A stretch of 64,000 nt of DNA from an uncultured Chitinophaga sp. (GTDB lineage: Bacteria > Bacteroidota > Bacteroidia > Chitinophagales > Chitinophagaceae): the NCBI GenBank assembly GCA_964508655.1, contig CAZDUO010000005.1, positions 34,650 through 98,649 on the forward strand, written 5' to 3'. Positions 16,306-59,857 of this stretch are shown here, piece by piece (position 1 is the first letter of the stretch; the number at the start of each line of letters is the position of its first letter). Made by a program: the position numbers and the translations under genes. The notes beneath the pieces are model-generated. The model was not told the DNA's origin. It made no database searches and was given only the letters and a program-made list of their open reading frames with translations.

Positions 16306-16333
16306 ACCGGGAAAAAGTGAACTTATCCCCGGT
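16306..16333 (-). terminator. intrinsic terminator downstream of susD
   Basis: Minus-strand RNA reads ACCGGGGA-(12-nt loop)-UUCCCGGU: an 8-bp stem including one G-U pair. UUUUUAAAUUUUU follows immediately. Confidence 0.55.
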
Positions 16334-16360
16334 GTAATGAAAAGAAAACTGCGACAAATT

Positions 16361-18178: not shown

Positions 18179-18198
18179 ATTACTATTTTTTACAAGTA

Positions 18199-21327: not shown

Positions 21328-21593
21328 AACGTTTATTTTGGCAGTTGAAAACTTAAAAAACTTATTTTATTGATAAGAACAAAGTGAGCATCATTTAATT
21401 TCTCATTGGAGAAATTAAGTATTGAAAATATTTTATGTGAAGAAATAACTTGTGCAGCAAAGCACGATGAAGATTGAAAATGTAGCCCAATTTTTTTCAT
21501 ACAGCAGCCGGTCGAAGATTGATTTTTGTATTGTGAATGCAGCAAGCAGAACTGCAATTTCACATAACGAATATAGGAGATTTTTTAAAAAAT

Positions 21594-21607
21594 TGCAACC
21601 GATTGCA
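21594..21607. promoter_or_regulatory. LacI/GalR-type operator candidate (TGCAACCGATTGCA) in the susC / lacI-1 divergent region
   Basis: 14-bp imperfect palindrome with 6 of 7 symmetric pairs and a central CG. It fits the generic LacI-family pattern TGnAAnCGnTTnCA. It sits in an AT-rich context 36 nt upstream of the lacI-1 ATG. An identical 14-mer recurs at 22704. Confidence 0.55.
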
Positions 21608-21642
21608 ATTTTTTTTTAAAAAATTTTTCTTTTATTTGTGTT

Positions 21643-37744: not shown

Positions 37745-38056
37745 TTGTGCCTCCGGGCTTTACTCCACGGGTACCCGGTGAGTGATATATCTTTTTCTGC
37801 TACAATCAGAAATGCGTTTGATAATATAAGTGCAAAATTCCACGGCGTTGAATTATACAAGACTGCAAGTGGCCGGAGTATTATATTGCCGGAGCATCTG
37901 GTGAAAGAACAGGAAGTTTATTTTGCAATTGTGACTGAAAAATTCCTTGAATATTTAAAAAACAGCTATTTGCCTGCATGGGAGCTACCGGATATGACCG
38001 CTATATATTTCACCACAATACGGAGACTTGAGCATGCTTTAAAAAACAAAGACTGA
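37745..38056 (+). pseudogene. remnant: C-terminal fragment of a 'putative oxidoreductase C-terminal domain' (Gfo/Idh/MocA-associated) gene
   Basis: The only start is a TTG. The translated tail IILPEHLVKEQEVYFAIVTEKFLEYLKNSYLPAWELPDMTAIYFTTIRRLEHALKN resembles the conserved C-terminus (..GHEAHF..VTE.FL.YLK.G.LP.WE.PNM..KY.TT..ALE.A) of ~420-aa oxidoreductases. Key residues have diverged and about 300 codons are missing. Confidence 0.45.
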
Positions 38057-43236: not shown

Positions 43237-43300
43237 TACGTAAAAATCAAAAGGAATAAGAATTACATAAATCATGTATTTAAAAAATAAATCATCAACA

Positions 43301-46490
<3,190 letters not shown>

Positions 46491-46560: not shown

Positions 46561-48810
46561 ATGAAAATATCAGTTAAAATTATGGGAGCTGTAATCATGC
46601 TCTTGTTTTTTCTTAATGGAACTGTCAGAAAGTTTATGCCGGATAATGACCATAATACTTGGTCGCACTATGGCGGCAGCCCGGATCAGTCAAAGTATTT
46701 TAATGCTTCAGAAATCACTAAGGAAAATGTGAACCGGGTGCAGGTAGCCTGGTATTATCCTACCATGGATTCTTCCTTTAATTTTTTCAGCCCCATCATT
46801 GTAGATACCATCATGTATGTTATGGCAAATAATTCTTCCCTCGTCGCCATCCATGCACAAACAGGCAAAGAAATCTGGATTCATGCCAACCTGCAGGGAT
46901 TAACCCGCCGGGGTATTAATTATTGGGAAAGCAAAGACAGGAAAGACAGGCGTTTGTTGTTTACACTCAACAATACCTTACAGGCCATTGATGCGTTGAC
47001 AGGAAAATCAATAATGACCTTTGGTAAAAACGGATATGTAGATATGAGAGAAGGTCTTGACCGGCCTGTTTCCACTATCCGGCGTATGCAGTCCATGATG
47101 CCCGGGGTTATATTTGAAGATTTGATTATAATGGGTTCTGCTCCGGGTGAAGCATATTTTTCTCCGCCGGGTCATATCAGAGCTTACAATGTAGTAACCG
47201 GTAAAAAAGTCTGGACATTTCATACCGTTCCCCACCCGGGTGAATACGGATATAATACGTGGCCAAAAGATGCGTACAAATATGTTGGCGGAACGAATGT
47301 ATGGAGTGAAATTTCCGTTGATACAAAAAGAGGTATTGCGTATTTGCCTCTCGGCTCACCCACTTTCGATTTTTATGGCGCTGACCGTATCGGAGCAAAT
47401 CTCTTTGGCAATTGTCTGGTTGCCCTTAATGCAAGAACAGGCAAGCGTATCTGGCATTTTCAAACCATACACCATGATCTCTGGGATTATGATCTGGCTT
47501 CGGCGCCGCAATTAATTACAGTAAACCGCAATGGTAAGTCTATTGATGCCGTAGCTATTGCCACCAAACACGGCTTTATGTTTGTATTCGATCGTGTTAC
47601 CGGCAAACCGGTATTCCCGATTGTAGAAAAACCGTTTCCGGCCAGCAACATGCCAGGCGAGAAAGCATGGCCTACCCAACCCATTCCTTCACTACCCAGT
47701 TTTACCAGGCATGAAGTGACAAAAGACATGATCAACCCGTATTACTCAGAAGAAGAAAAGAAAAAATGGCATAAACGAATTGATTCTGCCAAATCAGGTT
47801 TATTTGTTCCTCCATCAGATAAATATGAAACAATTATGCTGCCCGGCGCATTGGGTGGTGTAAACTTTGGCAATACGGCTTCTGACCCCGCCAAAGGAAT
47901 GATGTATATTTTAACGCAGGAGTATCCTTCCATTTATAAACTGGAAAGAATAAAAACTCCCAGGGAATTAATGTCGTCAGATGATAAACAAAAAGCTCAG
48001 ACACTATATGCTACTTCCTGCAAATCCTGCCACGGAGATAATATGACTGGCCGGGGTATTGCGCCTTCGGTAATTAATGCGGGGCAGCGCATAACTTTAG
48101 ATGACTTTAAAACCCTGATAACTGTTGGACGTGGTCAAATGCCCGGCCTTATTCATGCAGATGATCAAAAAATAAATGCATTGTATCGTTACCTGGGAGG
48201 TACTATTTCAAGATTTCCTTCTGGCGGGCAGCAAAGAAGAACTGAAACCAAAATGCCCGATGGCCCTGTTGTTGCATCAGGCGGCGCACCGGTTAAACCG
48301 GATACCAAAATTATTCCGCCCATGTCAGATTATCCTACCGGGGTAGTGCGGCCCAAAAACCGTTATACAACAGATTATGGTACCGCATGGCCCGATCTGT
48401 TGGGACCTACCTGGGCATGGGTAATGGCATATGATCTGAATACCGGAACTGTCAAATGGAAACAACCTTTGGGCGAAGATACCAAAGCATCCATGGCCGG
48501 CGATAAAACGGCCGGCGCAGTAAACGGTTCGCAAAGGAAAGGGATTGTTGTTACCTCCACCGGGGTATTGTTTTGCAATGGCAAAGGCGGTAAACTATAT
48601 GCTTATGATGCAGACAACGGAACCCTTTTATGGGAAACAACATTAAGCTATGAATCGAATACACAACCGGTGATGTATGAATTGAACGGCAAACAATACC
48701 TGGTGGTGAATGCCACCAATAATTTTACAAAGGATAGTTATGATCATTCCAAAGACCCGGGAGCTTTACCAAGAGCCTATGTAGTGTATGCGCTTCCGGG
48801 CAGCAAGTAA
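46561..48810 (+). CDS. PQQ-dependent (glucose-dehydrogenase-family) beta-propeller dehydrogenase with an internal mono-haem cytochrome c module
   Basis: 749 aa with an N-terminal hydrophobic signal/anchor. PQQ-GDH-type motifs: WSHYGGSPDQSKY, NVNRVQVAW, LVALNARTGKRIWHFQTIHHDLWDYDL, FMFVFDRVTGKP, AWPTQPIP. Around residues 480-560 there are a CKSCHG (CxxCH) motif and a downstream GQMPG (axial Met candidate). Further propeller blades follow (VMAYDLNTGTVKWK, LYAYDADNGTLLWE). Confidence 0.8.
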   Translation: MKISVKIMGAVIMLLFFLNGTVRKFMPDNDHNTWSHYGGSPDQSKYFNASEITKENVNRVQVAWYYPTMDSSFNFFSPIIVDTIMYVMANNSSLVAIHAQTGKEIWIHANLQGLTRRGINYWESKDRKDRRLLFTLNNTLQAIDALTGKSIMTFGKNGYVDMREGLDRPVSTIRRMQSMMPGVIFEDLIIMGSAPGEAYFSPPGHIRAYNVVTGKKVWTFHTVPHPGEYGYNTWPKDAYKYVGGTNVWSEISVDTKRGIAYLPLGSPTFDFYGADRIGANLFGNCLVALNARTGKRIWHFQTIHHDLWDYDLASAPQLITVNRNGKSIDAVAIATKHGFMFVFDRVTGKPVFPIVEKPFPASNMPGEKAWPTQPIPSLPSFTRHEVTKDMINPYYSEEEKKKWHKRIDSAKSGLFVPPSDKYETIMLPGALGGVNFGNTASDPAKGMMYILTQEYPSIYKLERIKTPRELMSSDDKQKAQTLYATSCKSCHGDNMTGRGIAPSVINAGQRITLDDFKTLITVGRGQMPGLIHADDQKINALYRYLGGTISRFPSGGQQRRTETKMPDGPVVASGGAPVKPDTKIIPPMSDYPTGVVRPKNRYTTDYGTAWPDLLGPTWAWVMAYDLNTGTVKWKQPLGEDTKASMAGDKTAGAVNGSQRKGIVVTSTGVLFCNGKGGKLYAYDADNGTLLWETTLSYESNTQPVMYELNGKQYLVVNATNNFTKDSYDHSKDPGALPRAYVVYALPGSK

Positions 48811-48878
48811 AATAACTATTATCAACACATCGGGATATGTGTACAGGTAATTTATATAGTTAACCAAAACTCAAAATC

Positions 48879-50093
48879 ATGAACAGCTTGCTTGTTACAT
48901 TGGCAGTTAGCATCAGCCTATCTGCATCATCCCAAACCCTCAGCAAACGTGTAATACATAATGACCCTTCCAAATACAGGGAACTGCCAGCCGTACATGC
49001 AGGCGCGGGTAAAATGGGATTTACACAATTGATTGGCAGAACAGAGCTATCCACCAATTTTCTTTACCTGCACGCAGGTTCTATCCAGCCCAAATCGGGT
49101 ATCGGGCAGCATTTTCACCATACTATTGAAGAAATGTTTGTTATACTGGATGGCGAAGCGGAGTTTACTATCAATGGGCGTACATCTAAAATAAAAGCCC
49201 CGGCGCTGGTTCCTTGTAAAATGGGTAACTCTCATGGAATCTATAATCCGGGAAACACACCCATTCGCTGGATGAATTTTGCAGTCAGTACAACCAAAGG
49301 CCGCGGTGATGCATTCGACTTGGGTGATAACCGTGTGGGGGCAGCATTGGATCCAATTCCGCAATTTGTTTCCGGCCAATTGAAAAAAGATTTACTGAAG
49401 ACGAATAACAATATCTATCCGGGCAATGGTATTTTATACCGCCGCATTTTTGGCCCCGATGTATTTTCTACCAATTGGGATCATGTGGTCCATGTAATAA
49501 TACCAGCAGGCAGTACCACCGGGCCAAGATTACTTGAAGGAATTGAAGAGGTGTATTACGTAATAAAAGGCTCAGGCATTATAACGGCTGGTTCAGAAAC
49601 TGCAGCCATAACAGCTGATGATTCTTTCTACGGATTGCTGGGGGAACAATTCAACCTCGCTAATAACGGAAAGGAAGATCTTGAATTACTGGTGATTGGT
49701 ATTGCCGCTTCAAAGCGGCAAAAAAATCCTGATAACCTTAAACCACTTGCCAATCCAAAAGCCATTCTGCTGCAGATGGATTTTGTAGTGCCAAAAGAAA
49801 ACAGCGAGGCATTCGAAAAAATGTACCACTCCATTTATGTACCTGCTATGACTGTACAGAAAGGATATGTGGGGTCAAAATTATTGCGCATTTTCCCGGA
49901 GAATATCAGCAAAGAAATACAGGCTGAACCAACAACCTATAACTATTCAATTCAAATTTCTTTTGCCACGGAAGAAGACCGGAGAAAATGGGTGGCCAGC
50001 CCGCAACACCAGATTGCATGGCCTGCAGCAGCAGGGCTGGTTAAAGAATACAAGTGGAGAGGCTTTGATGTAATGGGTGATGATAATCAGTAA
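48879..50093 (+). CDS. secreted bicupin protein with C-terminal ABM/Dabb-like (ferredoxin-fold) domain
   Basis: 404 aa with a signal peptide (MNSLLVTLAVSISLSASSQ). Cupin 1 has a metal motif: GIGQHFHHTIEEMFVILDGEAEF...GNSHGIYN. Cupin 2 (EGIEEVYYVIKGSG) lacks the His cluster. The C-terminal ~100 aa (LLQMDFVVPKENSEAFEKMYHSIYVPAMTVQKGYVGSKLLRIF...SIQISFATEEDRRKWVASPQH) look like an antibiotic-biosynthesis-monooxygenase fold. Confidence 0.55.
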   Translation: MNSLLVTLAVSISLSASSQTLSKRVIHNDPSKYRELPAVHAGAGKMGFTQLIGRTELSTNFLYLHAGSIQPKSGIGQHFHHTIEEMFVILDGEAEFTINGRTSKIKAPALVPCKMGNSHGIYNPGNTPIRWMNFAVSTTKGRGDAFDLGDNRVGAALDPIPQFVSGQLKKDLLKTNNNIYPGNGILYRRIFGPDVFSTNWDHVVHVIIPAGSTTGPRLLEGIEEVYYVIKGSGIITAGSETAAITADDSFYGLLGEQFNLANNGKEDLELLVIGIAASKRQKNPDNLKPLANPKAILLQMDFVVPKENSEAFEKMYHSIYVPAMTVQKGYVGSKLLRIFPENISKEIQAEPTTYNYSIQISFATEEDRRKWVASPQHQIAWPAAAGLVKEYKWRGFDVMGDDNQ

Positions 50094-50148
50094 TAAGCCA
50101 TTTACGGAAAATAGCAAGAACATAAACAAAAAACGGCCGGTATTCACA

Positions 50149-51804
50149 ATGCGAATTAAAACTTACTTAGCAGCTGCGTTGATAATTTATATCAACATGT
50201 TTTCCGTCACAGCACAAGACATTCCGCCAACAACATCATTGGTGTATCCCGGTGTTGATGGCAGGCTGGTGTATGTGGCGGATAGTTTGGGAAACAGGAT
50301 TCCAGATTTTTCCAATGCAGGATATAAAGGCGGAGGCGTTGCCATTCCGTATGTACCCGTTAAAGCAATCATTTGGCCGGTGGCAGGAGACAATGCAGAT
50401 AAAGTACAAAAAGCGATAGACAGTGTGTCTGCTCTTACTCCGGATATGTATGGCTTCAGGGGCGCTGTATTATTGAAGATGGGGTTTTACCAGTTAGACA
50501 AACCTCTATATATAAAAACTTCGGGTGTGGTGCTTCGTGGCGAAGGCATGAGCGATATTGGTACTATACTATTTGGAAAAACACCTAAACAACAACCGGC
50601 GCCGGGGCCCGGTCGTGGCGGAAGACCGGCATTGATAAACATCACCGGCGACTCCGGTATCGTAGTGCAGGAAGAAACAAAACAACTGATTACCGATAAC
50701 TATGTGCCGGTTGGCGCTAACAGTTTCAATGTAGTATCTGCCAAAACTTTTAAAAAAGGAGATAAGATTTTAGTTCGCCGCAATGGCAATGAAGACTGGA
50801 TAAAAGAAATTGGTGAAGACAGCGCTACTGTGGGAAGAAACAGGTGGCGGCCTTTTGTAATAACTTATGACAGAATAATTACAGACATAAAAGGGAATAC
50901 CATAACCGTCGATGGCCCCATTTTCACAGCAATCGAAACCCGCTGGGGAGGAGGCGATATTTTAAAATACAATGATAAACGCATAGAGCAGGTAGGAATT
51001 GAAAACCTGCGTGGCGTATCCGAGTATGACCCTGCTGTTCGTACAAAGGCATATGGTAATATGGACCGTCCTTCGATTGATGACCCGGTAACCCGGTATG
51101 AAGGGGAAGAATATTTTTCCGACGAAAATCATTATGGCAATTTTATCAACTTTAGTAATGCAAAAAATGCATGGGTAAGGAATATGACAGCCCTTCATTT
51201 TGCCAATAGCGTAGTGCAGGCCAATGCGGGTACCAAATGGATTACCGTTCAGGATTGTGAATCAAAAGAACCGGTTTCAGTAAGAGCAGGCGGCAGAAGG
51301 TTTACTTTTCAAATGAACGGACAGTTTTGCCTGGTACAAAGATGCCTCTCGCAAAAGGGAAGACATTCATTTGTGCTGCAAGGTTCTGAAGCAAGCGGCA
51401 ATGTTTTTTATGATTGTAAAGCTGTCAATCCTTATTCTACCAGTGAGCCACATAACCGCTGGGTGAACGGAGTACTTTATGATAATGTGAAAGCGCCGCT
51501 TACTGCAAGGTTCTGGAAAGATTTTATCATCGGCTGGGCGGGAGCCAATATTGTATTCTGGAATTGCGAAGGGGATTTTCGCATTCAACAGCCTCCTACT
51601 GCGCAAAACTATTCTTTTGGCCATATAGGAGTAGCCGGAATTATTTTTAATACAACATTGCAGGATTATGTAAAACCAAGAGGCTATATCGAATCCCTGG
51701 ATAAACATGTTGCACCCGGAAGTCTATACTTAACACAATTAAAAGAACGACTGGGGGAAAATGCAATAAAGAATATAGCAAAAGGCGCAGGAGGAATAGA
51801 ATAA
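50149..51804 (+). CDS. secreted protein of unknown family, probable right-handed beta-helix (pectin-lyase fold)
   Basis: I place the start at MRIKTYLAAALIIYINMFSVTAQD (ATG at 50149). The N-terminal region DFSNAGYKGGGVAIPYVPVKAIIWP..GDNADKVQKAIDSVS resembles the entry segment of pectate-lyase-superfamily / GH28-related proteins. Later repetitive segments are Asn/Gly-rich (NFINFSNAKNAWVRNM, ANIVFWNCEG). The family was not identified. Confidence 0.35.
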   Translation: MRIKTYLAAALIIYINMFSVTAQDIPPTTSLVYPGVDGRLVYVADSLGNRIPDFSNAGYKGGGVAIPYVPVKAIIWPVAGDNADKVQKAIDSVSALTPDMYGFRGAVLLKMGFYQLDKPLYIKTSGVVLRGEGMSDIGTILFGKTPKQQPAPGPGRGGRPALINITGDSGIVVQEETKQLITDNYVPVGANSFNVVSAKTFKKGDKILVRRNGNEDWIKEIGEDSATVGRNRWRPFVITYDRIITDIKGNTITVDGPIFTAIETRWGGGDILKYNDKRIEQVGIENLRGVSEYDPAVRTKAYGNMDRPSIDDPVTRYEGEEYFSDENHYGNFINFSNAKNAWVRNMTALHFANSVVQANAGTKWITVQDCESKEPVSVRAGGRRFTFQMNGQFCLVQRCLSQKGRHSFVLQGSEASGNVFYDCKAVNPYSTSEPHNRWVNGVLYDNVKAPLTARFWKDFIIGWAGANIVFWNCEGDFRIQQPPTAQNYSFGHIGVAGIIFNTTLQDYVKPRGYIESLDKHVAPGSLYLTQLKERLGENAIKNIAKGAGGIE

Positions 51805-51843
51805 CTTAATAAAAACTGTCAATCTTTTAAAACCGGTTATTAT

Positions 51844-52767
51844 ATGAAATTAAAAACTGCTGTTCTGTGTTTACTGTCATGCACTGTCCTTTTTATTAAT
51901 TCTGTTGCACAAACTATTTCAAAAGAAGAACTCATCTTTCTTACTTCGGCATGGAAGGGAGAAAGATTTGCAGACGGAAGGCCCAGGATTTCAGACAGCC
52001 TGCTGCAAAGGGCAAAACATATCATGATTGATGATGCATGGACAGTGCTGAAAAATGAAGGCTACCTGAACCAGTTTGAAGGCGGATGGAAAACAGTGAA
52101 TGATACCCCGATGACTGGCCGTGCATTGACGGCCATGTATATGCCCAGTCGCCCCGATGTGGAAAAGAATATTAAAGAAAGAGGATCCCAACAGGGAAGA
52201 AAAGGCAATACCAATTCATGGCCGATAGATATACTCACCAAAGGTGATTTGTATGTAGCTGATGCATTTGGAAAAATCAGCGGCGGCCCTATCATGGGTG
52301 CTACATTAGCCAATTCCATATTTAGTAAATCGGGCAATGGTGTTGTCTTTGATGGCGCTGCCAGAGATTTACAGGAAATAAAAAACATTAAAGGCTTCAA
52401 TGCTTTTGTACGGGACTTTCATCCATCCTTTACCGAAGAAATGGTATTGATGGGGCTTAATACTCCAATTCGTATAGGCAATGTAATGGTGCTTCCCGGC
52501 GATTTGGTTATTGCCACAAGAGAAGGGGTACTTTTTGTGCCGGCACACATGGCAGAGCAGGTGGTGAGCACAGCGGAGTTTGTGATACGCAAAGACCAGT
52601 TTGGTTTTGAAATGGTTCGCAGCGGTAAATACAGCACAGGCGAAATTGACAGCCAATGGGGCGATGAAATAAAAACTGAATTTTTAAAATGGCTGGAGAA
52701 ACATCCGGAGTTGGGAAAGATGACCCGTGCGGAACTGGATAAGATGATGAGTAAAAGAACCTGGTAG
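51844..52767 (+). CDS. RraA / HMG-CHA aldolase family protein carrying a signal peptide
   Basis: 307 aa with a signal peptide (MKLKTAVLCLLSCTVLFINSVAQT). The core GDLYVADAFGKISGGPIMGATLANSIFSKSGNGVVFDGAARDLQEIKNIKGFNAFVRDFHPS ... VMVLPGDLVIATREGVLFVP matches the RraA-family pattern (G.v.V.D...A..G...a......G..G.V.dG..RD). Confidence 0.6.
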   Translation: MKLKTAVLCLLSCTVLFINSVAQTISKEELIFLTSAWKGERFADGRPRISDSLLQRAKHIMIDDAWTVLKNEGYLNQFEGGWKTVNDTPMTGRALTAMYMPSRPDVEKNIKERGSQQGRKGNTNSWPIDILTKGDLYVADAFGKISGGPIMGATLANSIFSKSGNGVVFDGAARDLQEIKNIKGFNAFVRDFHPSFTEEMVLMGLNTPIRIGNVMVLPGDLVIATREGVLFVPAHMAEQVVSTAEFVIRKDQFGFEMVRSGKYSTGEIDSQWGDEIKTEFLKWLEKHPELGKMTRAELDKMMSKRTW

Positions 52768-52792
52768 GTAACTTAATTTTTAAAAAATAAAT

Positions 52793-53389
52793 ATGAAAAA
52801 GCTCGCCGTTGTGACAAGCCTTCTGTTATCCCTCGTTGTAATTAGTTTATCCGCCTATCCACAAACCAGTGAATGGACGGAAAGAAAAGCTAAAAAATGG
52901 TTTAAGAAAAAAGAATACCTGAATGGGTTAAAAGCCACTCCGCATGTAGCTATTAATAAAGTGGAATTTGCCAGGCAATACCACCTCAACAAAATATTTT
53001 GGGTTAAAGCCTTTGCTTTTTTAAGAGACACCAATTTAATAACGTTGAAAAATGGCCGGCATACTATTGACGGGGATAACGTGTATGCTATAGTTTCCGA
53101 AGCGCCTACAAAGGATTACGATAAAACTGCATTTGAATCGCATAAAAATTACATTGACCTGCAATATGTAATAACCGGTGAAGAAAATATGGGAAGGACT
53201 CCTGTGGAATCTTTAAAGGTTGACAAAGCTTACAATGAAAAGGCTGATATTGCCTACTATACAGGAGACGGAAAAATTTATACGGTGCCAGCAAACAATT
53301 TTCTTCTTTTTTTTCCTGGCGAAGCTCACCGGCCAAATATTACTCCGGGTGGAAATAAAGTAGTGAAAAAGGTAGTTATAAAAATATGA
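52793..53389 (+). CDS. YhcH/YjgK/YiaL (DUF386, EbgC-like cupin) family protein carrying a signal peptide
   Basis: 198 aa with a signal peptide (MKKLAVVTSLLLSLVVISLSAYPQ). Family motifs: FESHKNYIDLQYVITGEENMG and FFPGEAHRPN. Confidence 0.7.
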   Translation: MKKLAVVTSLLLSLVVISLSAYPQTSEWTERKAKKWFKKKEYLNGLKATPHVAINKVEFARQYHLNKIFWVKAFAFLRDTNLITLKNGRHTIDGDNVYAIVSEAPTKDYDKTAFESHKNYIDLQYVITGEENMGRTPVESLKVDKAYNEKADIAYYTGDGKIYTVPANNFLLFFPGEAHRPNITPGGNKVVKKVVIKI

Positions 53390-53452
53390 GCGGCTTAGGT
53401 GTAATTTTTATTCAGAATCAGGTACACAATAAAAACAGCAAATCTGAATATC

Positions 53453-54877
53453 ATGGGTATGAAAAAAATAGTTTTGCTCAGTTCGTTTCTGTTATTACTA
53501 ACATGCATTTCAAAACTATTTGCCATTATCCGGCTGCCGCCCATTATGAGCAGCAATATGGTGCTGCAGCAAAATTCACAGGCAACATTATGGGGATGGG
53601 CAAGCCCGACTGAGCGGTTTGTTATTATCTCCTCATGGAAGAATACAGTTGATTCCGTAACGGCATTAAATACCGGAAAGTGGAAAGCAAAAATCAGCAC
53701 GCCGGCAGCAGGCGGACCTTATACCATTACGATCAAAGGCCGGTTCAATACAATTGTATTGGAAAATATTCTGATTGGTGAAGTTTGGATTTGTTCCGGC
53801 CAGTCAAATATGGAAATGAGCAATACCAAACAAATACAGGACGAGCTGCCCACCTGCAAGAATGATAATATACGTTTCTTCACTGTATTCAAAAAAACTT
53901 CTGAATTTCCGCAGGATCATTGCGAAGGTGAATGGGTATCCTGCAACGAAGAAACATTACGGCGATTCAGCGCTGCAGGCTATTTTTTTGGAAAAAAATT
54001 GCATACTGAGCTGAATAATGTTCCTATAGGTCTTATTCAGTCAGCCTGGAGCGGAACCCCGGTGGAATTGTGGGAACCTGCTGAAGTACTCGACAGTGAT
54101 CCTGAAATGAAAGAAGCTGCTGCTAAAATAAGAGATGTGACCTACCGGCCCAATAAGCCCGGGTATATTTATAATGCAATGATCTACCCAATCTCCCATT
54201 ACACCATTGCCGGTGTTATCTGGTACCAGGGTGAGGGGAATACAGCAAGAGCCGGCACCTACGAAAAAATGTTTACAGGCATGATCGGCGCCTGGCGAAA
54301 ACAGTTTGAACAGGATTTTCCTTTTTATTACGTGCAAATTGCCCCCTATACTTATGAAACCCCTTATGAAGCGGCTTTGCTGATGGAACAGCAAACCCGT
54401 TCGCTATCTTATCCGAAAACCGGCATGGTAGTAATCACCGATCTTGTTGATAACATCAAAGACCAGCATCCGAAAGACAAATTAAATGTGGGTTTGCGTT
54501 TAGCCAATATTGCATTGGCAGAAACATACAAGCTAAATATACCTACGCCTGTTTACAAAAATCCAAAGTATAAAAGAATGGAAGTAAGTAAAGGGAAAGT
54601 AAACCTGTATTTTGACAATGCGCCCAATGGTTTTATGGTACAAGGAGATAGTGCAGCTACTGAATTTCTCATTGCAGGAAGTGATCAATACTTTTTGCCG
54701 GCTGAGGTAAAACTGGAAAAAGACAGGATCGTTGTCTCAAACAAACAGATCTCCAATCCGGTTGCAGTCCGGTTTTCTTTCAGCAATACCGGCATGTCGA
54801 ATGTGTTTAACAAAGAAGGATTACCTATTATTCCCTTCCGGACGGATAACTGGGAAGTAATACCGGTGAAACAGTAA
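53453..54877 (+). CDS. sialate-O-acetylesterase-like (SASA/SGNH) carbohydrate esterase, second copy
   Basis: 474 aa with a signal peptide. Motifs seen: GEVWICSGQSNME, GVIWYQGEGN, DQHPKDKLNVGLRLA. It is collinear with the 38056 gene but lacks its inserted sandwich domain. Confidence 0.82.
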   Translation: MGMKKIVLLSSFLLLLTCISKLFAIIRLPPIMSSNMVLQQNSQATLWGWASPTERFVIISSWKNTVDSVTALNTGKWKAKISTPAAGGPYTITIKGRFNTIVLENILIGEVWICSGQSNMEMSNTKQIQDELPTCKNDNIRFFTVFKKTSEFPQDHCEGEWVSCNEETLRRFSAAGYFFGKKLHTELNNVPIGLIQSAWSGTPVELWEPAEVLDSDPEMKEAAAKIRDVTYRPNKPGYIYNAMIYPISHYTIAGVIWYQGEGNTARAGTYEKMFTGMIGAWRKQFEQDFPFYYVQIAPYTYETPYEAALLMEQQTRSLSYPKTGMVVITDLVDNIKDQHPKDKLNVGLRLANIALAETYKLNIPTPVYKNPKYKRMEVSKGKVNLYFDNAPNGFMVQGDSAATEFLIAGSDQYFLPAEVKLEKDRIVVSNKQISNPVAVRFSFSNTGMSNVFNKEGLPIIPFRTDNWEVIPVKQ

Positions 54878-54903
54878 AAAACGTTGCCGTTTCAGGTAAT
54901 ACA

Positions 54904-55899
54904 TTATTTCATTTTTACTCTCAGCAAAAACTGCGTGGCGGTTATAAACAGAGTTTTATTATCGGGAGTTAATGCACAGTTGGAAGCCGATACGCCATTG
55001 ATCTTAATTTTTCCGATCAGCTTACCGGCTTTGGAAAATATCCAGATGCCGCCCGGGCCGGTGGCAAACACATTTCCCTTCTTATCTATCTTAAGACCAT
55101 CACATAGTCCTCCGCCTTTTTCATTGCTTACATCATAAAATAATGCAGCATTCGTCAATGAGCCATCTGAAGAAACATCATAAGTGTGCCACATTTTTTT
55201 CCGGTTATCAGAATTGGCCACCAATAATTTTTTTCCGCCCGGAAACATGGCAATACCATTTGGCGACTCAATGGAGTCAATTAACAAGGTAATATTACCC
55301 GACTTATCCATTCTGTACACACCCTGCATTGTAAGATCTTTAACCGGATCTCTGGTACCTCTTTCAAATCCATAAGCCGGATCGGTGAAATAAACGTCGC
55401 CATCCGTTGTAACATAAAGATCGTTTGGGCTATTCAGTCTTTTACCCTGGTAAGTACCGGCAACTGTAATAAATTTTGACTGCGGTGCATTAAGTGGTGC
55501 ATCCATCATGGCCACCCTCCTGTCCCCATGCTGGCAAACCAGTAATTTACCATCCTGTGAAAGTGCTAATCCGTTTGGCCCCATAAACCCGCCTCTTTTT
55601 ATGGTATCTGTATAACCTCCGGGTTTTACATACACTTCTTTGCCTTTAGCTTCCGTCCATTTATAAATTGTATTTCCCGGCACATCAGACACCAAAAGCA
55701 TTTTTTCTTTCTCTATCCACAACGGTCCTTCTGTAAATTGAAACCCTTCCGCAATAATTTCAACTTTCGCATCTTTCTTTATCAGTTTGGAAAGTTCTTT
55801 TGAAACAAACTCAATAGTACGGGTGCCGGGTTTTATTTCCTGTGTATGCCCGGAAATAATATATCCAAGTGCAAGCAAAAGAAATGTAATCTTCGTCAT
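54904..55899 (-). CDS. SMP-30/gluconolactonase/LRE family lactonase, secreted
   Basis: 331 aa with a signal peptide. Motifs seen: FTEGPLWIEKEKMLLVSDVPGNTIYKW, GPNGLALSQDGKLLVCQHGDRRV, LNSPNDLYVTTDGDVYFTDP, PNGIAMFPGGKKLLVANS. Confidence 0.85.
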   Translation of the reverse strand: MTKITFLLLALGYIISGHTQEIKPGTRTIEFVSKELSKLIKKDAKVEIIAEGFQFTEGPLWIEKEKMLLVSDVPGNTIYKWTEAKGKEVYVKPGGYTDTIKRGGFMGPNGLALSQDGKLLVCQHGDRRVAMMDAPLNAPQSKFITVAGTYQGKRLNSPNDLYVTTDGDVYFTDPAYGFERGTRDPVKDLTMQGVYRMDKSGNITLLIDSIESPNGIAMFPGGKKLLVANSDNRKKMWHTYDVSSDGSLTNAALFYDVSNEKGGGLCDGLKIDKKGNVFATGPGGIWIFSKAGKLIGKIKINGVSASNCALTPDNKTLFITATQFLLRVKMK

Positions 55900-55974
55900 A
55901 AATTTTTATTTATAAATAAATGCAGCCAACTGCTGCCGGAAATAAATACTGGTTGTTGGCATATGTATGTCCGC

Positions 55975-57924
55975 TTACAAATAATTCACAAACCCCTCCA
56001 TATTCGTCCGTATTTTATACACCTTACTATAGCTTACAATATAAAGTGTTTTCATATCAGCATCGCCAAAACAAAGACTAACCGGGAAGGAAGGCAGATT
56101 AATCATACCAAGAAATTCCCCTTTGGCGTTAAATATCTGAACACCATAAAAAGTGGCAACATACAGATTGCCCTGTTTATCAATTGCCATACCATCAGCG
56201 CTGGTAGACCGGGCTTTTCTGTCAAGTACATTCTCCGTCAAAAATAATTTTGCAAACTTCCGGCCATTGCTGATTGTTCCGTCAGCATTTACATCATAAG
56301 CCCAGATGAAATTATCTTTTTCACTGCTTACCGGATACCAGGATTCATCATCAATGCAATTGTTGATGTAAAGTGTTTTGCCATCCGGTGATAATACAAT
56401 GCCATTGGGCATGGCAAATTCATTAGGGTTGGTCAATCGGGTTACTTTTCCTTCCGGCGAAACATAATACACAGCCCGGCCCGGTTGAAATTTTTCAGGC
56501 TCCATTGTAAACTGCGGGTCGGTAAAATATACACCACCCTTTGCATCGGTCACAATATCATTGGGTCCGTCAATAGGTTTACCCTCGTACTTATCAGCAA
56601 TAACTTTTACCACTTCTCCCTTTGTTGTCATTTCCACTACCCGATGCCCCATCATATCGCAAACAAGCAGGTTCCCGTTTTTATAAGGATACAATCCATT
56701 GGTCTGCATTTTACCTTCAGTAATATTTTTATAACTGCCATTGGGGTTTAATTCTACTGTTGAACTTTTCTTCGGGCTTGCTCCCCAGTTCTGGTCGAAA
56801 TACATATTTGAAAAATAAATCTTCCCATTTATCCATTTGGGTCCTTCACTGAAGTTTAATTCGGGTTTTGTTTTTTTACCATCCACAATTAATTCCAATC
56901 TGGCATCTTCAGGAATAATGGACCGGTAAGCTGCCATTCTTGTTTTTTCTTTTTCAAGGTAATCCGTTCGAGCCGGCCAGAAAATATCCAAAGCATCGCA
57001 ACCCAACTCGCCAATCTTTGCACCATGCACCATATTGGCAGAAATACGCACTACATCACCCGCCTTCATCGGCTGTTCACCATCAAGCAGAATTTCATCA
57101 CAGGCGCCACGCAAACCGAACATCATTTGCTCCTCGGGATGTATATGATGCGGAAATACAGAATTGGGCTCCATAGAAATAAAACTCAGCTGCATATTCT
57201 TTCCTGAAATTAATCTTGAAGAAGCTCCCGGCGCCAGTTCAGTTAGCTGCATATCGTAGAGATTGTAAACAATCCCGGGCTTTACATTTGGTTCAAGTGT
57301 TGTATTGATATCAGCAAATTCAGCAGGAATATTTTTAAGTCCTGCTTTCTCAAGATAATCCGAACGCAAGGGGCTGTACAATTCCAGCAACCTGGCTCCT
57401 GATGCACCGGCCGTCAAAGCATTCTTAGTTCCTTTTTCGAGAAATACAAAATCCGTTTGCGGTGTAATGCTATGTATTCCATCCGGCGATTCTCTCTTCA
57501 ATCCGGTCATTGTCACAAAAGACCCATTTATTAACTGACTAACCGAACCTTCCAAAACAAACAGGAACCTGTCTGCCGGCAACACTTCTTCGGGGATTTT
57601 TGCACCAGGGTCAAGAGAAAGTGTACATACCAGTATTCCGCTTCCCCAAAACATTTTTGAGTTTACGCCGGTGTACAGCATTACGTTTGTCAAACTATCC
57701 ATGCTGGTTACTTTTGCCGCTTCGAGATTCGAGGTTAAGTTCTGCACGGGAAGACCCGGAATTTTTCTTTCCGTCAGATTATACTGCCCGATCAGCTTTT
57801 TGTTCTTAGTTACCCATCCGGGTTCAGAGCCGGCATCGGAACTGCAATTTGTGAGTACAAGTAAAATCGCACCAAGAAAGCCGCCGTAAATGGTTTTAGC
57901 CGCTAATAAGGATTGCATACTCAT
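55975..57924 (-). CDS. fusion lipoprotein: N-terminal bicupin + C-terminal SMP-30/gluconolactonase six-bladed propeller
   Basis: 649 aa with a lipobox (ILLVLTNCSS). Cupin 2 has a metal motif: FPHHIHPEEQMMFGLRGACDEILLDG...ANMVHGAKIG. From about residue 355 it reads FSEGPKWINGKIYFSNM ... GPNDIVTDAKGGVYFTDP ... PNGIVLSPDGKTLYINN ... ADGMAIDKQGNLYVA, a lactonase propeller. Confidence 0.75.
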   Translation of the reverse strand: MSMQSLLAAKTIYGGFLGAILLVLTNCSSDAGSEPGWVTKNKKLIGQYNLTERKIPGLPVQNLTSNLEAAKVTSMDSLTNVMLYTGVNSKMFWGSGILVCTLSLDPGAKIPEEVLPADRFLFVLEGSVSQLINGSFVTMTGLKRESPDGIHSITPQTDFVFLEKGTKNALTAGASGARLLELYSPLRSDYLEKAGLKNIPAEFADINTTLEPNVKPGIVYNLYDMQLTELAPGASSRLISGKNMQLSFISMEPNSVFPHHIHPEEQMMFGLRGACDEILLDGEQPMKAGDVVRISANMVHGAKIGELGCDALDIFWPARTDYLEKEKTRMAAYRSIIPEDARLELIVDGKKTKPELNFSEGPKWINGKIYFSNMYFDQNWGASPKKSSTVELNPNGSYKNITEGKMQTNGLYPYKNGNLLVCDMMGHRVVEMTTKGEVVKVIADKYEGKPIDGPNDIVTDAKGGVYFTDPQFTMEPEKFQPGRAVYYVSPEGKVTRLTNPNEFAMPNGIVLSPDGKTLYINNCIDDESWYPVSSEKDNFIWAYDVNADGTISNGRKFAKLFLTENVLDRKARSTSADGMAIDKQGNLYVATFYGVQIFNAKGEFLGMINLPSFPVSLCFGDADMKTLYIVSYSKVYKIRTNMEGFVNYL

Positions 57925-58100
57925 GTTTGTTTTGGTTTAACAGAAGGAAAAGTAGGAAGTTAATTTGGTGCATCAAATTTACGCTTGTCTGTTCAGAGAT
58001 AGTTTGTAAATTGACATCAACTTTTTTATTAATGACTGTTAGTACTGCTAATTCTTCGCTCCTATACTATCTGGATAAATTAAACCTAAATATAAATGAT

Positions 58101-58439
58101 ATGAAATACTTATTTACCTGGCTATTGCTTTTAGGAGGCTTAGCCGTTTTTGCACAAACCTCCATTGATGGCAACTGGAAAGGAACCCGCGAAACGCCAA
58201 ACGGCACTTTTGAAGTGAACTATACTTTTAAAGTGGAAGGAACTGAATTGAAAGGAACATGGAAAACCCAATTTGGAGAAGCCCCTTTGGAAAACGGAAA
58301 ATTTGATGGTAAAAAATTAACTTTTACTATTTCCTTCAACGATGTAACCATCAACAGCACGGGGGAAGTAATCAATGAAAACGAAATCCTGTTAAAAAAC
58401 GAAAGAGGTGAAATGAAGCTTACCCGTGTGAAATCGTAA
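58101..58439 (+). CDS. small secreted protein of unknown function (112 aa, beta-rich)
   Basis: I place the start at MKYLFTWLLLLGGLAVFAQT (ATG at 58101). The mature part has alternating beta-strand-like repeats (GNWKGTRETPNGTFEVNYTFKVEGTELKGTWKTQFGE...GKFDGKKLTFTISF). The track ORF start at 57927 adds 58 implausible codons. Confidence 0.55.
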   Translation: MKYLFTWLLLLGGLAVFAQTSIDGNWKGTRETPNGTFEVNYTFKVEGTELKGTWKTQFGEAPLENGKFDGKKLTFTISFNDVTINSTGEVINENEILLKNERGEMKLTRVKS

Positions 58440-58840
58440 GTTTCATTTAACAGGTTAAATTATTTTCTCCTGGACTTACTGTTTCAAATTATGTTCTGAT
58501 TTAAAAAAAAATTATATCCTGATAAATCTTTTACGCTGACTGCATCAACCTCTTTTAAATTACAGCCGTGAAAATTTAATCAATGCCTGAAAAAGGGTTA
58601 GTTGAAGGTTTAGAAAATCACCATTGTTTGCAAATATTTTCCGGATCATATCTGCAGCACCAATGGATATAATACACGTTTAAATGTAACAAAAGATAAA
58701 TAGCAACCCCGGTATGAATTAAGTATCATTAATAGCCAGATCAACGTGCAGAAAAATAATTCAAGACTGATGTATTAAATAGTAATGGATTTGTACCGGG
58801 TAAATGTTATAAGTAAAAAAAGGTAATCGCCTCTAAGTAA

Positions 58841-59857
58841 ATGAAAACACTTGTCTGCAAAGAGCCTGGAAAACTGGAATACTCCGGGGGAATCATGCCG
58901 CGTTTACAAAATAATCATTCCATTATAAAAATTAAACGAGTTGGTATCTGCGGCACAGACCTGCATGCCTTTGAAGGCACGCAGCCTTTTTTCAGCTATC
59001 CCCGTATTTTAGGTCATGAACTGGCCGGCGAGTTGATTGATTGTGATAATGCCCCCGGCTTTCAGAAAGGGGAAACTGTAACTTTTATTCCCTATTTTAA
59101 CTGTGGAGTTTGTGTTGCCTGCCGAAACGGGAAACCCAATAGTTGTGTACAACTGAAAGTATGCGGAGTGCATACAGATGGAGGTATGGCAGAATACCTT
59201 TCTGTTCCATCTCATTCATTACTGCACGGTGAGGGTTTAAGCTTTGATGAATTGGCATTGGTGGAGCCATTGGCCATCGGCGCACATGCTGTGAGCAGGG
59301 CAAATGTTGCAACGGGAGAATTTGTTCTGGTAGTTGGGGCGGGCCCTATTGGTTTAGGAATAATGGAATTTGCCGGAATAGCAGGCGGAACGGTCATTGC
59401 ATTGGATATTAACCCCGGGCGGTTGCAATTCTGTAAGGAAAAACTCAACGTCGCTTACACTATCAACGCTTTGACAGAAAATGTTTCCGGCCGGTTAAAA
59501 AAAATAACCAATGGCGACATGCCAACTGTCGTTATTGATGCAACAGGCAGTTTAAAAGCGATCAATGTTGCATTTCAATATATGGCCCATGGAGCCCGGT
59601 ATATACTGATCGGTTTGCAAAAAGGTGATATTTCATTCAACCACCCGGAATTCCATAAGAGAGAGGCTGCATTGATGAGCAGCCGGAATGCAACCCGTGA
59701 AGATTTTCAAAAGGTAATTGCAGCTATAAAAAAAGGGGATGTTAACCCTCTTAAATACATAACTCATCGTGTGAGCTTTGATAATGTAATCAACGAATTT
59801 AAAAACTGGCTTGATCCGGAAAATGGTGTAATTAAAGCTATGGTTGAAATAAACTGA
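58841..59857 (+). CDS. zinc-dependent medium-chain dehydrogenase, L-galactonate-5-dehydrogenase (LgoD/YjjN)-like
   Basis: 338 aa with no signal peptide. Motifs seen: GICGTDLHAFEGTQPFFSYPRILGHELAGE (catalytic Zn), a structural-Zn Cys cluster CGVCVACRNGKPNSC, and GAGPIGLG Rossmann. The LgoD-like assignment is from motif memory. Confidence 0.7.
   Translation: MKTLVCKEPGKLEYSGGIMPRLQNNHSIIKIKRVGICGTDLHAFEGTQPFFSYPRILGHELAGELIDCDNAPGFQKGETVTFIPYFNCGVCVACRNGKPNSCVQLKVCGVHTDGGMAEYLSVPSHSLLHGEGLSFDELALVEPLAIGAHAVSRANVATGEFVLVVGAGPIGLGIMEFAGIAGGTVIALDINPGRLQFCKEKLNVAYTINALTENVSGRLKKITNGDMPTVVIDATGSLKAINVAFQYMAHGARYILIGLQKGDISFNHPEFHKREAALMSSRNATREDFQKVIAAIKKGDVNPLKYITHRVSFDNVINEFKNWLDPENGVIKAMVEIN

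Follow-up and report, generated by a model that had tools for sequence, protein, structure and literature searches.

In this study we analyzed a 64-kb stretch of DNA from an uncultured member of the Chitinophagaceae (hereafter the window), which carries a large polysaccharide locus, and within it a module of nine genes (46561-58439) encoding exported redox, cupin, lactonase, RraA-like and glycan-related proteins. We propose, with a probability of about one half, that this module is part of an oxidative, non-phosphorylative pathway for sugars or sugar acids, which would operate outside the cytoplasm and is found across the Bacteroidota. Observed here are the protein families, the export signals, the conserved co-localization of the genes, and the homology ranking that links the RraA-like protein to FlDet, an RraA-family enzyme of Flavobacterium sp. 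UMI-01; from these we infer every substrate and reaction, and any specific substrate is proposed with much less confidence than the pathway in general.

All nine open reading frames (ORFs) were recovered where an earlier reading made from the letters of the DNA alone (the sequence-only reading) had placed them, and an ORF check together with Pfam and NCBIfam searches returned the families that it had named. The plus strand encodes, in order, a pyrroloquinoline quinone (PQQ) dehydrogenase with an inserted cytochrome c domain (46561-48810; PF01011, PF13442), a bicupin with an ABM-like C-terminus (48879-50093; Cupin_2 in two stretches and a weak DUF4286 match), a beta-helix protein (50149-51804; no Pfam match), an RraA-like protein (51844-52767; PF03737, 1.1e-16), a cupin-like protein of the YhcH/DUF386 family (52793-53389; PF04074, 6e-38), and a carbohydrate esterase of the SASA type (53453-54877; PF03629, 2.2e-20). 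They are followed on the minus strand by a lactonase of the SMP-30/gluconolactonase type (SGL; 54904-55899; PF08450, 2.5e-42) and by a cupin-cupin-SGL fusion lipoprotein (55975-57924; Cupin_2 and SGL in Pfam). The last member, again on the plus strand, is an exported protein of 112 amino acids (aa) that has no match in Pfam or NCBIfam (58101-58439). The module comes after two genes for esterases of carbohydrate esterase (CE) family 1, with gaps of 25-75 nt.

Export was called by a heuristic based on hydrophobicity and the lipobox, with LacI, a short-chain dehydrogenase/reductase (SDR), and a Zn-dependent alcohol dehydrogenase (Zn-ADH) as controls. An N-terminal hydrophobic region is present in all nine module proteins and in none of the controls. 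The signals are kept in the orthologs of the PQQ dehydrogenase (29/29), the bicupin (26/26), the cupin-SGL fusion (18/18), the free SGL (14/14), and the 112-aa protein (11/11), and in 114 of the 120 RraA orthologs, so that the proposed export of all nine products agrees with this heuristic and with nearly all orthologs. The fusion lipoprotein has a possible lipobox, LTNC, and the cupins of the module have Sec signals lacking a twin-arginine translocation (Tat) motif. Among the proteins encoded near RraA orthologs in other genomes, a Tat motif was found in 32 of 37 members of the enolase superfamily and in all eight UxuA-like dehydratases; the FGGY kinase and the aldehyde dehydrogenase (ALDH) of the related loci have no signal peptide.

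The comparison across genomes takes the RraA-like gene as its anchor. When one genome per GTDB species was scanned, 80 loci with an ortholog, taken with flanks of 10 kb, were obtained from the Chitinophagales, Cytophagales (Spirosoma, Cyclobacteriaceae, Adhaeribacter, Pontibacter), Flavobacteriales (Confluentibacter, Marixanthotalea), Sphingobacteriales (Mucilaginibacter), and Saprospiraceae/Haliscomenobacter; the window proteins were compared with these loci, and all ORFs of the loci were clustered. The RraA orthologs are 76-95% identical, which is unusually high across orders. At least one further module gene lies within 10 kb of RraA in 34 of the 80 loci (neighborhood A), in shuffled order and orientation. 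The PQQ gene was found in 27 loci, the bicupin in 26, the cupin-SGL fusion in 19, CE1 in 18, the beta-helix gene in 17, the free SGL in 14, the 112-aa gene in 11, SASA in nine, and YhcH in five. The PQQ and bicupin genes both occur within 10 kb of RraA in 22 of the 80 loci; for genes present in one or two copies in a genome of ~5 Mb, we estimate that chance would account for less than 1%.

Genes flanking the module recur as well: CE1 homologs usually adjoin the PQQ or the beta-helix gene, Zn-ADH homologs are present in loci L029, L038, L045, and L085, and members of glycoside hydrolase (GH) family 95 in L009, L017, L029, L030, and L085. Locus L085 belongs to an independent metagenome organism beyond the 80 loci and has, in this order, GH95, CE1/GH43, Zn-ADH, CE1, PQQ, bicupin, beta-helix, RraA, 112-aa, SGL, CE15, YhcH, cupin-SGL, and GH127 genes. 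Aquiflexum, Cecembia, and Cognataquiflexum (Cyclobacteriaceae) have a minimal core of the PQQ, bicupin, RraA, and cupin-SGL genes, and Adhaeribacter has a similar core with the free SGL in place of the fusion. These minimal cores lie outside any xylan context. The co-localization check that the sequence-only reading had named therefore came out in its favor, as shuffled synteny across at least five orders of Bacteroidota; its tie of the module to xylan loci did not last, since no xylanases accompany the core in Aquiflexum and Cecembia, and neither did the view of the nine genes as a whole system, as they are part of a larger one, which includes a dehydratase step not encoded in the window.

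This larger system appears in a second type of neighborhood (B), which overlaps A in 14 loci. At least two copies of RraA, encoding exported paralogs, are present in 46 of the 80 loci, and a protein of the enolase superfamily, with a galactonate dehydratase as the best model (1.8e-69), in 39. Other genes of neighborhood B encode UxuA-like dehydratases, SusC, SusD, a D-galactonate-type transporter of the major facilitator superfamily (MFS), a transporter of the bile acid:sodium symporter (BASS) family, a GntP permease, a gluconokinase-like FGGY kinase, and an AraC regulator. ALDH is encoded in five related loci, and the two models that it matches best are those of 2,5-dioxovalerate dehydrogenase and alpha-ketoglutarate-semialdehyde dehydrogenase.

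Some SusC/SusD loci lack any glycoside hydrolase (L075, 369-13716; L077, 1130-14608; L055, L060, L062, and L064). Their genes encode exported RraA paralogs, Tat-exported dehydratases of the enolase or UxuA-like type, an FGGY kinase, and transporters of the MFS or BASS type; some of the loci also have a PQQ-cytochrome c paralog. For instance, the Pontibacter locus L075 has the order SusC, SusD, RraA, two enolase-superfamily genes, two RraA, a third enolase-superfamily gene, and BASS, and the Chitinophagaceae locus L077 has SusC, SusD, two UxuA-like genes with Tat signals, two RraA, MFS, and the PQQ-cytochrome c paralog. Judged by their gene content, they look like loci for the uptake and processing of sugar acids. 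In three Confluentibacter loci (L022, L032, and L042), a gene of the PF06439 '3-keto-disaccharide hydrolase' family is located between the cupin-SGL and Tat-enolase genes, and these loci also contain a second PQQ paralog (51% identity) and a COesterase gene.

The RraA-like protein links the module to known chemistry. It has 307 aa, including a signal peptide and extensions at both termini, and more than 7400 relatives below 1e-20, the best 120 of which are 88-95% identical. Among the NCBIfam models, PRK08245 ranks first (104.6 bits), followed by PRK12764, a fusion of FAH and RraA (75.2 bits), the LigK type (~51 bits), and RraA proper (25.7 bits). FlDet, whose sequence was taken from the supplement of the original report (PMC8563752), gives the same order of models, with PRK08245 at 341 bits and PRK12764 second. 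In BLASTP, residues 4-217 of FlDet align with residues 49-266 of the RraA-like protein at 26% identity over 220 aa, covering the whole catalytic domain, although a tblastn search of the window with FlDet gave nothing at E 1e-3. FlDet converts 2-keto-3-deoxy-glucarate to alpha-ketoglutarate semialdehyde, which the ALDH FlDeg oxidizes to alpha-ketoglutarate, and the fldet gene is flanked by the gene of an exo-lyase (PMC8563752). Relatives in the Protein Data Bank (PDB) are yeast YER010C (5x15), 3k4i, and the aldolase 3noj, acting on HMG (4-hydroxy-4-methyl-2-oxoglutarate) and CHA (4-carboxy-4-hydroxy-2-oxoadipate); the catalytic R-D motif is kept (AARD).

By these comparisons, no characterized protein is closer to the RraA-like protein than FlDet, which acts as a dehydratase/decarboxylase on keto-deoxy-glucarate, and the protein of the module is placed as a divergent relative of the FlDet subfamily and of the class II pyruvate aldolases. 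The sequence-only reading had left this member with no assigned role; its nearest characterized relative now makes one plausible (PMC8563752). The assignment as RraA proper, the regulator of RNase E, was rejected: that model has a cut-off of 136 and scores only 25.7 bits here, and the protein is exported and has 307 aa, whereas RraA proper is cytoplasmic and has ~160 aa. A LigK aldolase of aromatic catabolism was ranked lower than the FlDet type, as the LigK models score below the FlDet subfamily model and reach 51 bits against a cut-off of 304.5.

The PQQ dehydrogenase has an eight-bladed propeller, matched by PF01011 (4.7e-159) in two stretches, namely residues 34-481 and the C-terminal blades. 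Residues 477-545 form the cytochrome c domain (PF13442), which is inserted between profile position 464 of the propeller and the last blades, rather than being C-terminal as in the type II alcohol dehydrogenases (ADHs), and places a heme c site on the same chain, with the motifs SCKSCH (CxxCH) and GQMP conserved in 30 homologs. The L077 paralog, only 34% identical, has its CxxCH in the equivalent position. Among the NCBIfam models, the top match is to the periplasmic portion of the membrane glucose/quinate/shikimate dehydrogenases (TIGR03074, 328 bits, below its cut-off of 832.65 and matched only at positions 149-625 of 783), ahead of the alcohol type (204 bits), and the N-terminus is a signal peptide, not a membrane anchor. 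The best solved relatives are the quinohemoprotein ADHs 1kv9, 1yiq, and 1kb0 (down to 3.1e-36) and the subunit 8gy2 of a membrane quinohemoprotein ADH (4.6e-40); the solved ADH structures align only to residues 25-363. Around residues 303-311, the same 30 homologs conserve the pattern HHDLWDYD. A 2026 preprint describes a DxD pattern as the lanthanide-binding signature of eight-bladed PQQ enzymes, including those of the glucose-dehydrogenase type, and the enzyme of the module may depend on a lanthanide rather than on calcium.

The bicupin-ABM protein, whose homologs are named 'cupin / heme-degrading monooxygenase HmoA' by the Joint Genome Institute, has an HxH..E..H site in its N-terminal cupin and no histidine ligands in the second one. 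Its AlphaFold2 model (mean predicted local distance difference test score, pLDDT, of 72.9) is matched by Foldseek to generic bicupins, that is, quercetinase YxaG, OxdC, MncA, and vicilins, at template modeling (TM) scores of 0.41-0.49, and these matches do not discriminate between a dioxygenase, a decarboxylase, an isomerase, and a storage protein. The 26 bicupin loci nearly coincide with the 27 PQQ loci, and in most shared loci the bicupin gene lies directly 3' of the PQQ gene on the same strand, with two cases (L010 and L030) in which it adjoins the PQQ gene on the opposite strand. Further, in a metagenome-assembled genome of Mucilaginibacter (L087, 7056-11584), the gene of a 527-aa bicupin-ABM homolog is transcribed away from that of a 928-aa fusion protein, which combines ThuA, a six-bladed PQQ dehydrogenase (GSDH), PKD, and cytochrome c. 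As this six-bladed partner is unrelated to the dehydrogenase of the module, the bicupin appears to be tied to PQQ-cytochrome sugar dehydrogenases in general.

Both lactonases match the SGL profile over positions 1-245 of 246. The motifs TEGP, NSPND, PNG, and DG, whose E, N, N, and D residues we take to be the metal ligands of SGL proteins, are readable in the free SGL, and its best solved relatives are 3e5z, a putative gluconolactonase (6.5e-32), and 3dr2, a gluconolactonase that is exported (3.6e-30). In the fusion lipoprotein of 649 aa, a degenerate cupin is followed by a metal cupin, which has a 3His-1Gln site, and this in turn by an SGL lactonase; metal ligands occur in the second cupin only, and these ligands and the lactonase motifs are invariant in 20 orthologs. 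The metal cupin aligns with CelOCE (9bwf, 1.1e-6, ~30% identity) and, more closely, with 4e2g (2.2e-14), and KdgF is also matched at ~5e-3. With 9bwf and 4e2g it shares PxHxHPxEQ, a histidine 38 residues on, and F.P.R..Y, and so reproduces the ligand spacing of CelOCE, a copper cupin that cleaves cellulose oxidatively (Santos et al. 2025; ligands as published, PMC11946906; PDB 9bwf).

In the beta-helix protein, only residues 117-347 match the NCBIfam model for the hyaluronic acid endo-lyase of the BT_3328 family, with 46.5 bits where the cut-off is 1100. The beta-helix family is widespread and uncharacterized; at E<=1e-3 it comprises 4131 cluster representatives, often of 900-2000 aa, and a scan of 46 relatives revealed F5/8 type C domains in 17, Big_2 in seven, SLH in four, and CBM96 in three; because such fusions are frequent, we regard the family as bearing the signature of an extracellular glycan-active catalytic domain. 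The AlphaFold2 model, built from a shallow alignment, has a mean pLDDT of 51.8 with the C-terminal half unmodeled, and its best Foldseek matches, tailspike depolymerases and a capsule lyase at TM 0.2-0.26, allow 'beta-helix depolymerase-like' at most. Against the PDB, the single sequence gave no match, and a profile of 46 diverse homologs found only the N-terminal motif of the putative pectin lyase 7chu (8.8e-8). The protein is probably a glycan depolymerase, either a lyase or a hydrolase. In most of the 17 loci the beta-helix gene is directly 5' of the RraA gene; a CE1/COesterase gene separates the two in three Flavobacteriales loci, and they are on opposite strands in L007.

The YhcH protein belongs to the YhcH/YjgK/YiaL subfamily (TIGR00022, 98.7 against a cut-off of 45.5) and falls below the equivalog model of the N-acetylneuraminate anomerase NanQ (80.4 bits against 160), and is a candidate for the anomerization or the ring opening of keto-deoxy sugar acids. 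The SASA esterase of the module is 35-39% identical to a paralog encoded at 38056-39996. Finally, the orthologs of the 112-aa protein are 61-83% identical and their genes are found beside RraA, cupin-SGL, or PQQ genes, that is, this protein travels with the module.

In the proposed pathway, GH43, GH51, GH67, GH115, GH95, GH127, CE1, CE15, SASA, and probably the beta-helix enzyme would release monosaccharides or short oligosaccharides in the periplasm. The PQQ dehydrogenase would then oxidize an aldose or uronate at C1 to a lactone, the likeliest substrates being the pentoses or the (4-O-methyl)glucuronate of glucuronoarabinoxylan, and the electrons would pass through the inserted heme c to a putative periplasmic acceptor and on to the respiratory chain. 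The two SGL lactonases would open the lactone to an aldonate or aldarate, which a dehydratase would convert to a 2-keto-3-deoxy acid; in related loci this is a Tat-exported enzyme of the enolase superfamily or of the UxuA type that is not encoded in the window. The RraA-like enzyme would form alpha-ketoglutarate semialdehyde from the keto-deoxy acid by a dehydration/decarboxylation of the FlDet type, or else cleave it to pyruvate and an aldehyde; the kinship to FlDet points to the semialdehyde as the last product made in the periplasm. Import could be by an MFS, BASS, or GntP transporter and the final step by a cytoplasmic aldehyde dehydrogenase, both of which are seen in the related loci. By the enzymes encoded nearby, candidate substrates are L-arabinose and D-xylose (GH43, GH51, GH127, GH10, GH3, and CE1), (4-O-methyl)glucuronate (GH67, GH115, and CE15), and L-galactose or L-fucose (GH95). 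The exported members would use neither NAD(P) nor ATP; because they would need only a metal, PQQ, or heme, their families suit periplasmic chemistry. The logic of dehydrogenase, cytochrome c, and lactonase that the sequence-only reading had advanced is backed by the context, namely by the glucose/quinate subfamily of the PQQ protein, the likeness of the SGL proteins to gluconolactonases, and the acid-sugar dehydratases, transporters, and gluconokinase-like kinase encoded in the vicinity.

A number of observations weigh against this pathway. The roles left for the bicupin-ABM protein, the fusion cupin, and the YhcH protein, that is, help in anomerization, lactone isomerization, or ring opening, are guesses. 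Sec export reportedly favors the loading of cupins with Cu or Zn, according to work on MncA and CucA; since the 3His cupins are Sec-exported, Cu or Zn would be favored for them too, and their export suits redox chemistry better than that of an isomerase. The reason for making small central metabolites outside the inner membrane is not obvious. The RraA-like protein stays below the PRK08245 cut-off of 208 even though this is its best-ranking model, and FlDet itself has 237 aa and no signal peptide. The position of the metal-site Asp102 of the HMG/CHA aldolase, kept as Asp in FlDet, is Ala in the RraA-like protein and its orthologs. It varies among the three clades of exported RraA paralogs (L005-L084), being Ala in the ortholog, Ser in P1, and Asp in P2, while all three clades have the N-terminal motif LT..WKGER..DGRP and a C-terminal extension. 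The partners expected from the related loci, that is, Tat-exported dehydratases of the enolase or UxuA type, further exported RraA paralogs, acid-sugar transporters, and ALDH, were not found in the 64-kb window, which leaves a gap at the dehydratase step. Finally, GH67, GH115, and CE15 are not neighbors of the module in the 80 loci, CE15 being seen in L085 only, and for this reason the uronate version of the pathway is weakened.

Part of this evidence could be read in terms of an attack on the polymer itself. The Sec-exported cupins, with a 3His-1Gln site in the fusion and a 3His-1Glu site in the bicupin, might be copper enzymes that cleave xylan, or xylan bound to cellulose, at C1 in the manner of CelOCE; the PQQ-heme c protein would supply electrons or H2O2, the lactonases would open the chain-end lactone, and RraA and the dehydratases would process or peel the acid ends. 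In fungi, cellobiose dehydrogenase or an AA12 dehydrogenase feeds lytic polysaccharide monooxygenases (LPMOs), and the PQQ-heme c enzyme would be the bacterial counterpart. The fusion cupin does reproduce the copper ligands of CelOCE and their spacing (PxHxHP, Gln at +4, and His at +38), invariantly in 20 orthologs, and its fusion to a lactonase would suit a lactone product. The position of the bicupin gene directly 3' of the PQQ gene in most loci, its pairing with a second PQQ-cytochrome type in L087, Sec export with no Tat motif, and the location of the module within a polysaccharide locus beside a probable glycan depolymerase point the same way. However, the much closer relative of the fusion cupin is 4e2g, a cupin of unknown function, and KdgF, a non-redox enzyme that linearizes uronates, is matched too; CelOCE is a free homodimer of 115 residues with no fusion; and the recurrent neighbors are enzymes of monosaccharide acids, transporters, and a kinase, some loci having no glycoside hydrolase at all. 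We consider this reading unlikely. The wider scheme is quite unlikely in our opinion: a polysaccharide-attacking redox system in which a sugar-fuelled PQQ-heme c enzyme would drive the C1 cleavage of xylan or cellulose by Sec-exported, CelOCE-like copper cupins, the fused lactonase would open the lactone, and exported dehydratases and RraA-fold enzymes would peel the acid ends, or, in a related version, the 4-O-methyl group of methylglucuronate would be lost as methanol by beta-elimination.

In another reading, which is in line with the match of the fusion cupin to KdgF, a lyase would act first. The beta-helix protein would eliminate the 4-substituent of a 4-O-substituted glucuronate, the KdgF-like cupin and YhcH would open the resulting unsaturated uronate to a linear 4-deoxy-5-keto-uronate, the PQQ enzyme would oxidize its aldehyde, the lactonases would open the lactone, and RraA would work as FlDet does in the pathway for 4-deoxy-L-erythro-5-hexoseulose uronate (DEHU). 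For FlDet there is the precedent, also in Bacteroidota, of an RraA-family gene beside an exo-lyase gene (PMC8563752), and in most loci considered here the RraA gene is directly 3' of the beta-helix gene, whose product is weakly similar to the BT_3328 family model and to capsule lyases; GH67, GH115, and CE15 are present in the window, and CE15 is within the module in L085. The lyase call, however, amounts to 46.5 bits against a cut-off of 1100 and a model of mean pLDDT 51.8, the minimal cores of the Cyclobacteriaceae and Adhaeribacter have no beta-helix gene, and enzymes releasing glucuronate are not general neighbors of the module, and so this order of events seems distinctly doubtful. A role in the use of plant aromatics from lignin-carbohydrate complexes within the periplasm is improbable. 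There, CE1 and CE15 would free hydroxycinnamates, quinate, or aryl alcohols for a quinate/shikimate or alcohol type of PQQ enzyme, the bicupin would be a ring-cleaving dioxygenase, the lactonases would open a pyrone or lactone, and RraA would be an aldolase of the LigK type. CE1 is indeed the most frequent carbohydrate-esterase neighbor (18 loci), the RraA fold includes the LigK/HMG aldolases, the bicupin fold resembles quercetin and salicylate dioxygenases, and the best PQQ subfamily also includes quinate and shikimate dehydrogenases, but the LigK models score 51 bits against 105 for the FlDet subfamily model, the genes that recur nearby encode acid-sugar dehydratases, galactonate-type transporters, and a gluconokinase-like kinase rather than enzymes of an aromatic pathway, and none of the hydratases, decarboxylases, or CoA-dependent enzymes known from ferulate or protocatechuate routes was seen. 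The genes might also share no pathway and be unrelated accessory genes co-traveling by transfer of the region among Bacteroidota, as the 60-95% identity of the module genes and of the flanking CE1 and GH95 across orders is compatible with horizontal spread of a block. Yet the membership is kept through repeated rearrangement of order and orientation, the minimal cores persist in unrelated contexts (Cyclobacteriaceae and Adhaeribacter), and the G+C content of the module equals that of its surroundings, which makes a merely shared journey highly improbable.

The surrounding locus has the gene content of a xylan polysaccharide utilization locus (PUL), with SusC/SusD and GH10, GH43, GH3, GH67, GH115, GH51, CE15, CE1, and GH95 in one neighborhood. 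Its minus arm encodes SusC (18199-21327), SusD (16361-18178), an FG-GAP/ASPIC protein, and a DUF255 protein. The plus arm encodes, in order, two LacI regulators, GH67, SDR, GH115, GH43, GH10, GH3, two GFO/IDH/MocA oxidoreductases, SASA, CE15, GH51, and the two CE1-type esterases directly 5' of the module (43274-46490; PF00756). Downstream of the module there are a cytoplasmic Zn-dependent dehydrogenase (58841-59857) and an exported GH95 (59903-62380), both encoded on the plus strand and both recurrent flanking genes, and then a GH127 gene that runs past the end of the window. Because GH95 and GH127 follow, the locus goes on past the module, which is embedded and not, as had been suggested, grafted at the end. 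A graft by recent transfer was also rejected: the G+C content of the module (0.41-0.44) is that of the surroundings, and neither G+C content nor skew breaks at 46.5 kb or 58.4 kb. The description of the set as lying outside the carbohydrate-active enzymes (CAZymes) has to be narrowed, as SASA is a carbohydrate esterase family and relatives of the beta-helix protein bear domains of the carbohydrate-binding module type.

A scan for promoters and terminators with a sigma-70 consensus, which is unsuited to Bacteroidota, gave no clear excess over shuffled sequences (54 against 51.7 +/- 6.7 and 29 against 21.4 +/- 4.4) and no boundary between the CE1 and PQQ genes, and a scan of the window with Rfam found no RNA family. 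The sole long intergenic space of the region is an AT-rich gap of 401 nt between the 112-aa and Zn-dehydrogenase genes (58440-58840), which has no Rfam match and likely holds a separate promoter. At the head of the plus arm, the two tandem LacI-family regulators (21643-22680 and 22720-23757, plus strand) are 55% identical. The two GFO/IDH/MocA oxidoreductases (34735-35919 and 36136-37515, plus strand), located between GH3 and the first SASA gene, have twin-arginine signals (RRKF) and are predicted to give the locus another set of redox enzymes that work in the periplasm. The G+C content is lower at 10001-22000 (0.35-0.41 against 0.41-0.47 elsewhere), a region that spans the DUF255, FG-GAP/ASPIC, SusD, and SusC genes. 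Finally, the minus strand at 1448-10244 encodes a GH78 rhamnosidase, a cytoplasmic UxuA, an SSF transporter, a xylose-isomerase-like TIM-barrel protein, and a weakly GH30-like protein; from this gene content, the standard cytoplasmic routes for glucuronate and xylose coexist with the exported module.

PULs have been read almost wholly through their glycoside hydrolases, lyases, and esterases, and the non-CAZyme genes inside them are usually ignored. The redox and sugar-acid module described here is shared among at least five orders of Bacteroidota, from soil, freshwater, and marine settings, and is built from families normally thought to be cytoplasmic, with a Sec or Tat signal on each member. 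Were the pathway true, the bacteria would gain respiratory electrons from plant-cell-wall sugars before import, obtain a precursor of the tricarboxylic acid cycle at no cost in ATP or NAD(P), and convert public sugars to acids that might be of no use to competitors. Functions would also be provided for the exported RraA-like proteins (more than 7000 relatives), the beta-helix family (more than 4000 cluster representatives), the bicupin-ABM proteins, and the cupin-lactonase fusions. If instead the reading by oxidative cleavage or methanol release were true, the module would be a new class of non-LPMO oxidative machinery in Bacteroidota polysaccharide loci. To our knowledge, the bacterial catabolism of 4-O-methylglucuronate has not been resolved, and the module would offer a route for this sugar.

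The gene set had been presented as undescribed, and the literature on RraA, PQQ, cupins, lactonases, and PULs yielded no description of exported RraA-like proteins, of Tat-exported acid-sugar dehydratases, or of this combination of genes in polysaccharide loci. A 2026 preprint deals with a different, six-bladed PQQ family in CAZyme clusters and speculates that it oxidizes reducing ends and feeds cytochromes, so that the general idea is already in circulation. The types of reaction are all known; what is new is the compartment, the exchange of cofactors, the enzyme families, and the link to polysaccharide loci.

Periplasmic oxidation by a PQQ glucose dehydrogenase and a gluconolactonase is known in Pseudomonas, in acetic acid bacteria such as Gluconobacter, and in Zymomonas. 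The membrane dehydrogenase of these systems has five N-terminal membrane helices and reduces ubiquinone, and the system ends at gluconate or ketogluconate. The module shares with it the PQQ subfamily, an exported SGL-type lactonase, and the predicted flow of electrons to respiration, but has a cleavable signal peptide and an inserted heme c, as well as cupins, an RraA-like protein, and, in related loci, exported dehydratases that are absent from the known system. The Weimberg pathway (XylB, XylC, XylD, XylX, and XylA of Caulobacter) and the oxidative uronate pathway (Udh, Gli, Gci, and KdgD of Agrobacterium and Pseudomonas) proceed through a dehydrogenase, an SMP-30-type lactonase, a dehydratase, a keto-deoxy-acid dehydratase, and alpha-ketoglutarate-semialdehyde dehydrogenase, and the acid-sugar dehydratase belongs to the enolase superfamily in several versions. 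This is the same order of chemistry as that proposed for the module together with its partners in related loci. However, these routes are cytoplasmic and NAD(P)-dependent, and their last dehydratase is of the FAH or DHDPS family and not of the RraA fold, whereas here Sec or Tat signals mark every step up to the semialdehyde, the first of which would depend on PQQ and heme.

Type II quinohemoprotein ADHs (1kv9, 1yiq, and 1kb0) are similar to the PQQ protein in being soluble periplasmic eight-bladed propellers with one heme c per chain. They differ in the location of the heme domain, C-terminal there and inserted here, and the family models place the PQQ protein with the sugar and quinate dehydrogenases. 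The metal cupin of the fusion resembles CelOCE in its Cupin_2 sub-group, identical ligand positions, the F.P.R..Y motif, and secretion (PMC11946906; 9bwf), but is the middle part of a 649-residue lipoprotein fused to a lactonase. The closest parallel to the RraA-like step is the oxidative DEHU pathway of FlRed, FlDet, and FlDeg (Nishiyama et al. 2021, PMC8563752), which likewise occurs in Bacteroidota, has a PRK08245 RraA-family enzyme that forms alpha-ketoglutarate semialdehyde, is finished by an ALDH, and has the RraA-family gene beside the gene of a polysaccharide-cleaving enzyme. In that pathway, FlDet was purified from cell extract and has no signal peptide, and the oxidizing enzyme is an NAD-dependent SDR (PMC8563752). 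In the module described here, the RraA-like protein is exported and extended at both termini, the predicted oxidant is a PQQ-heme c dehydrogenase, and lactonases and cupins are added.

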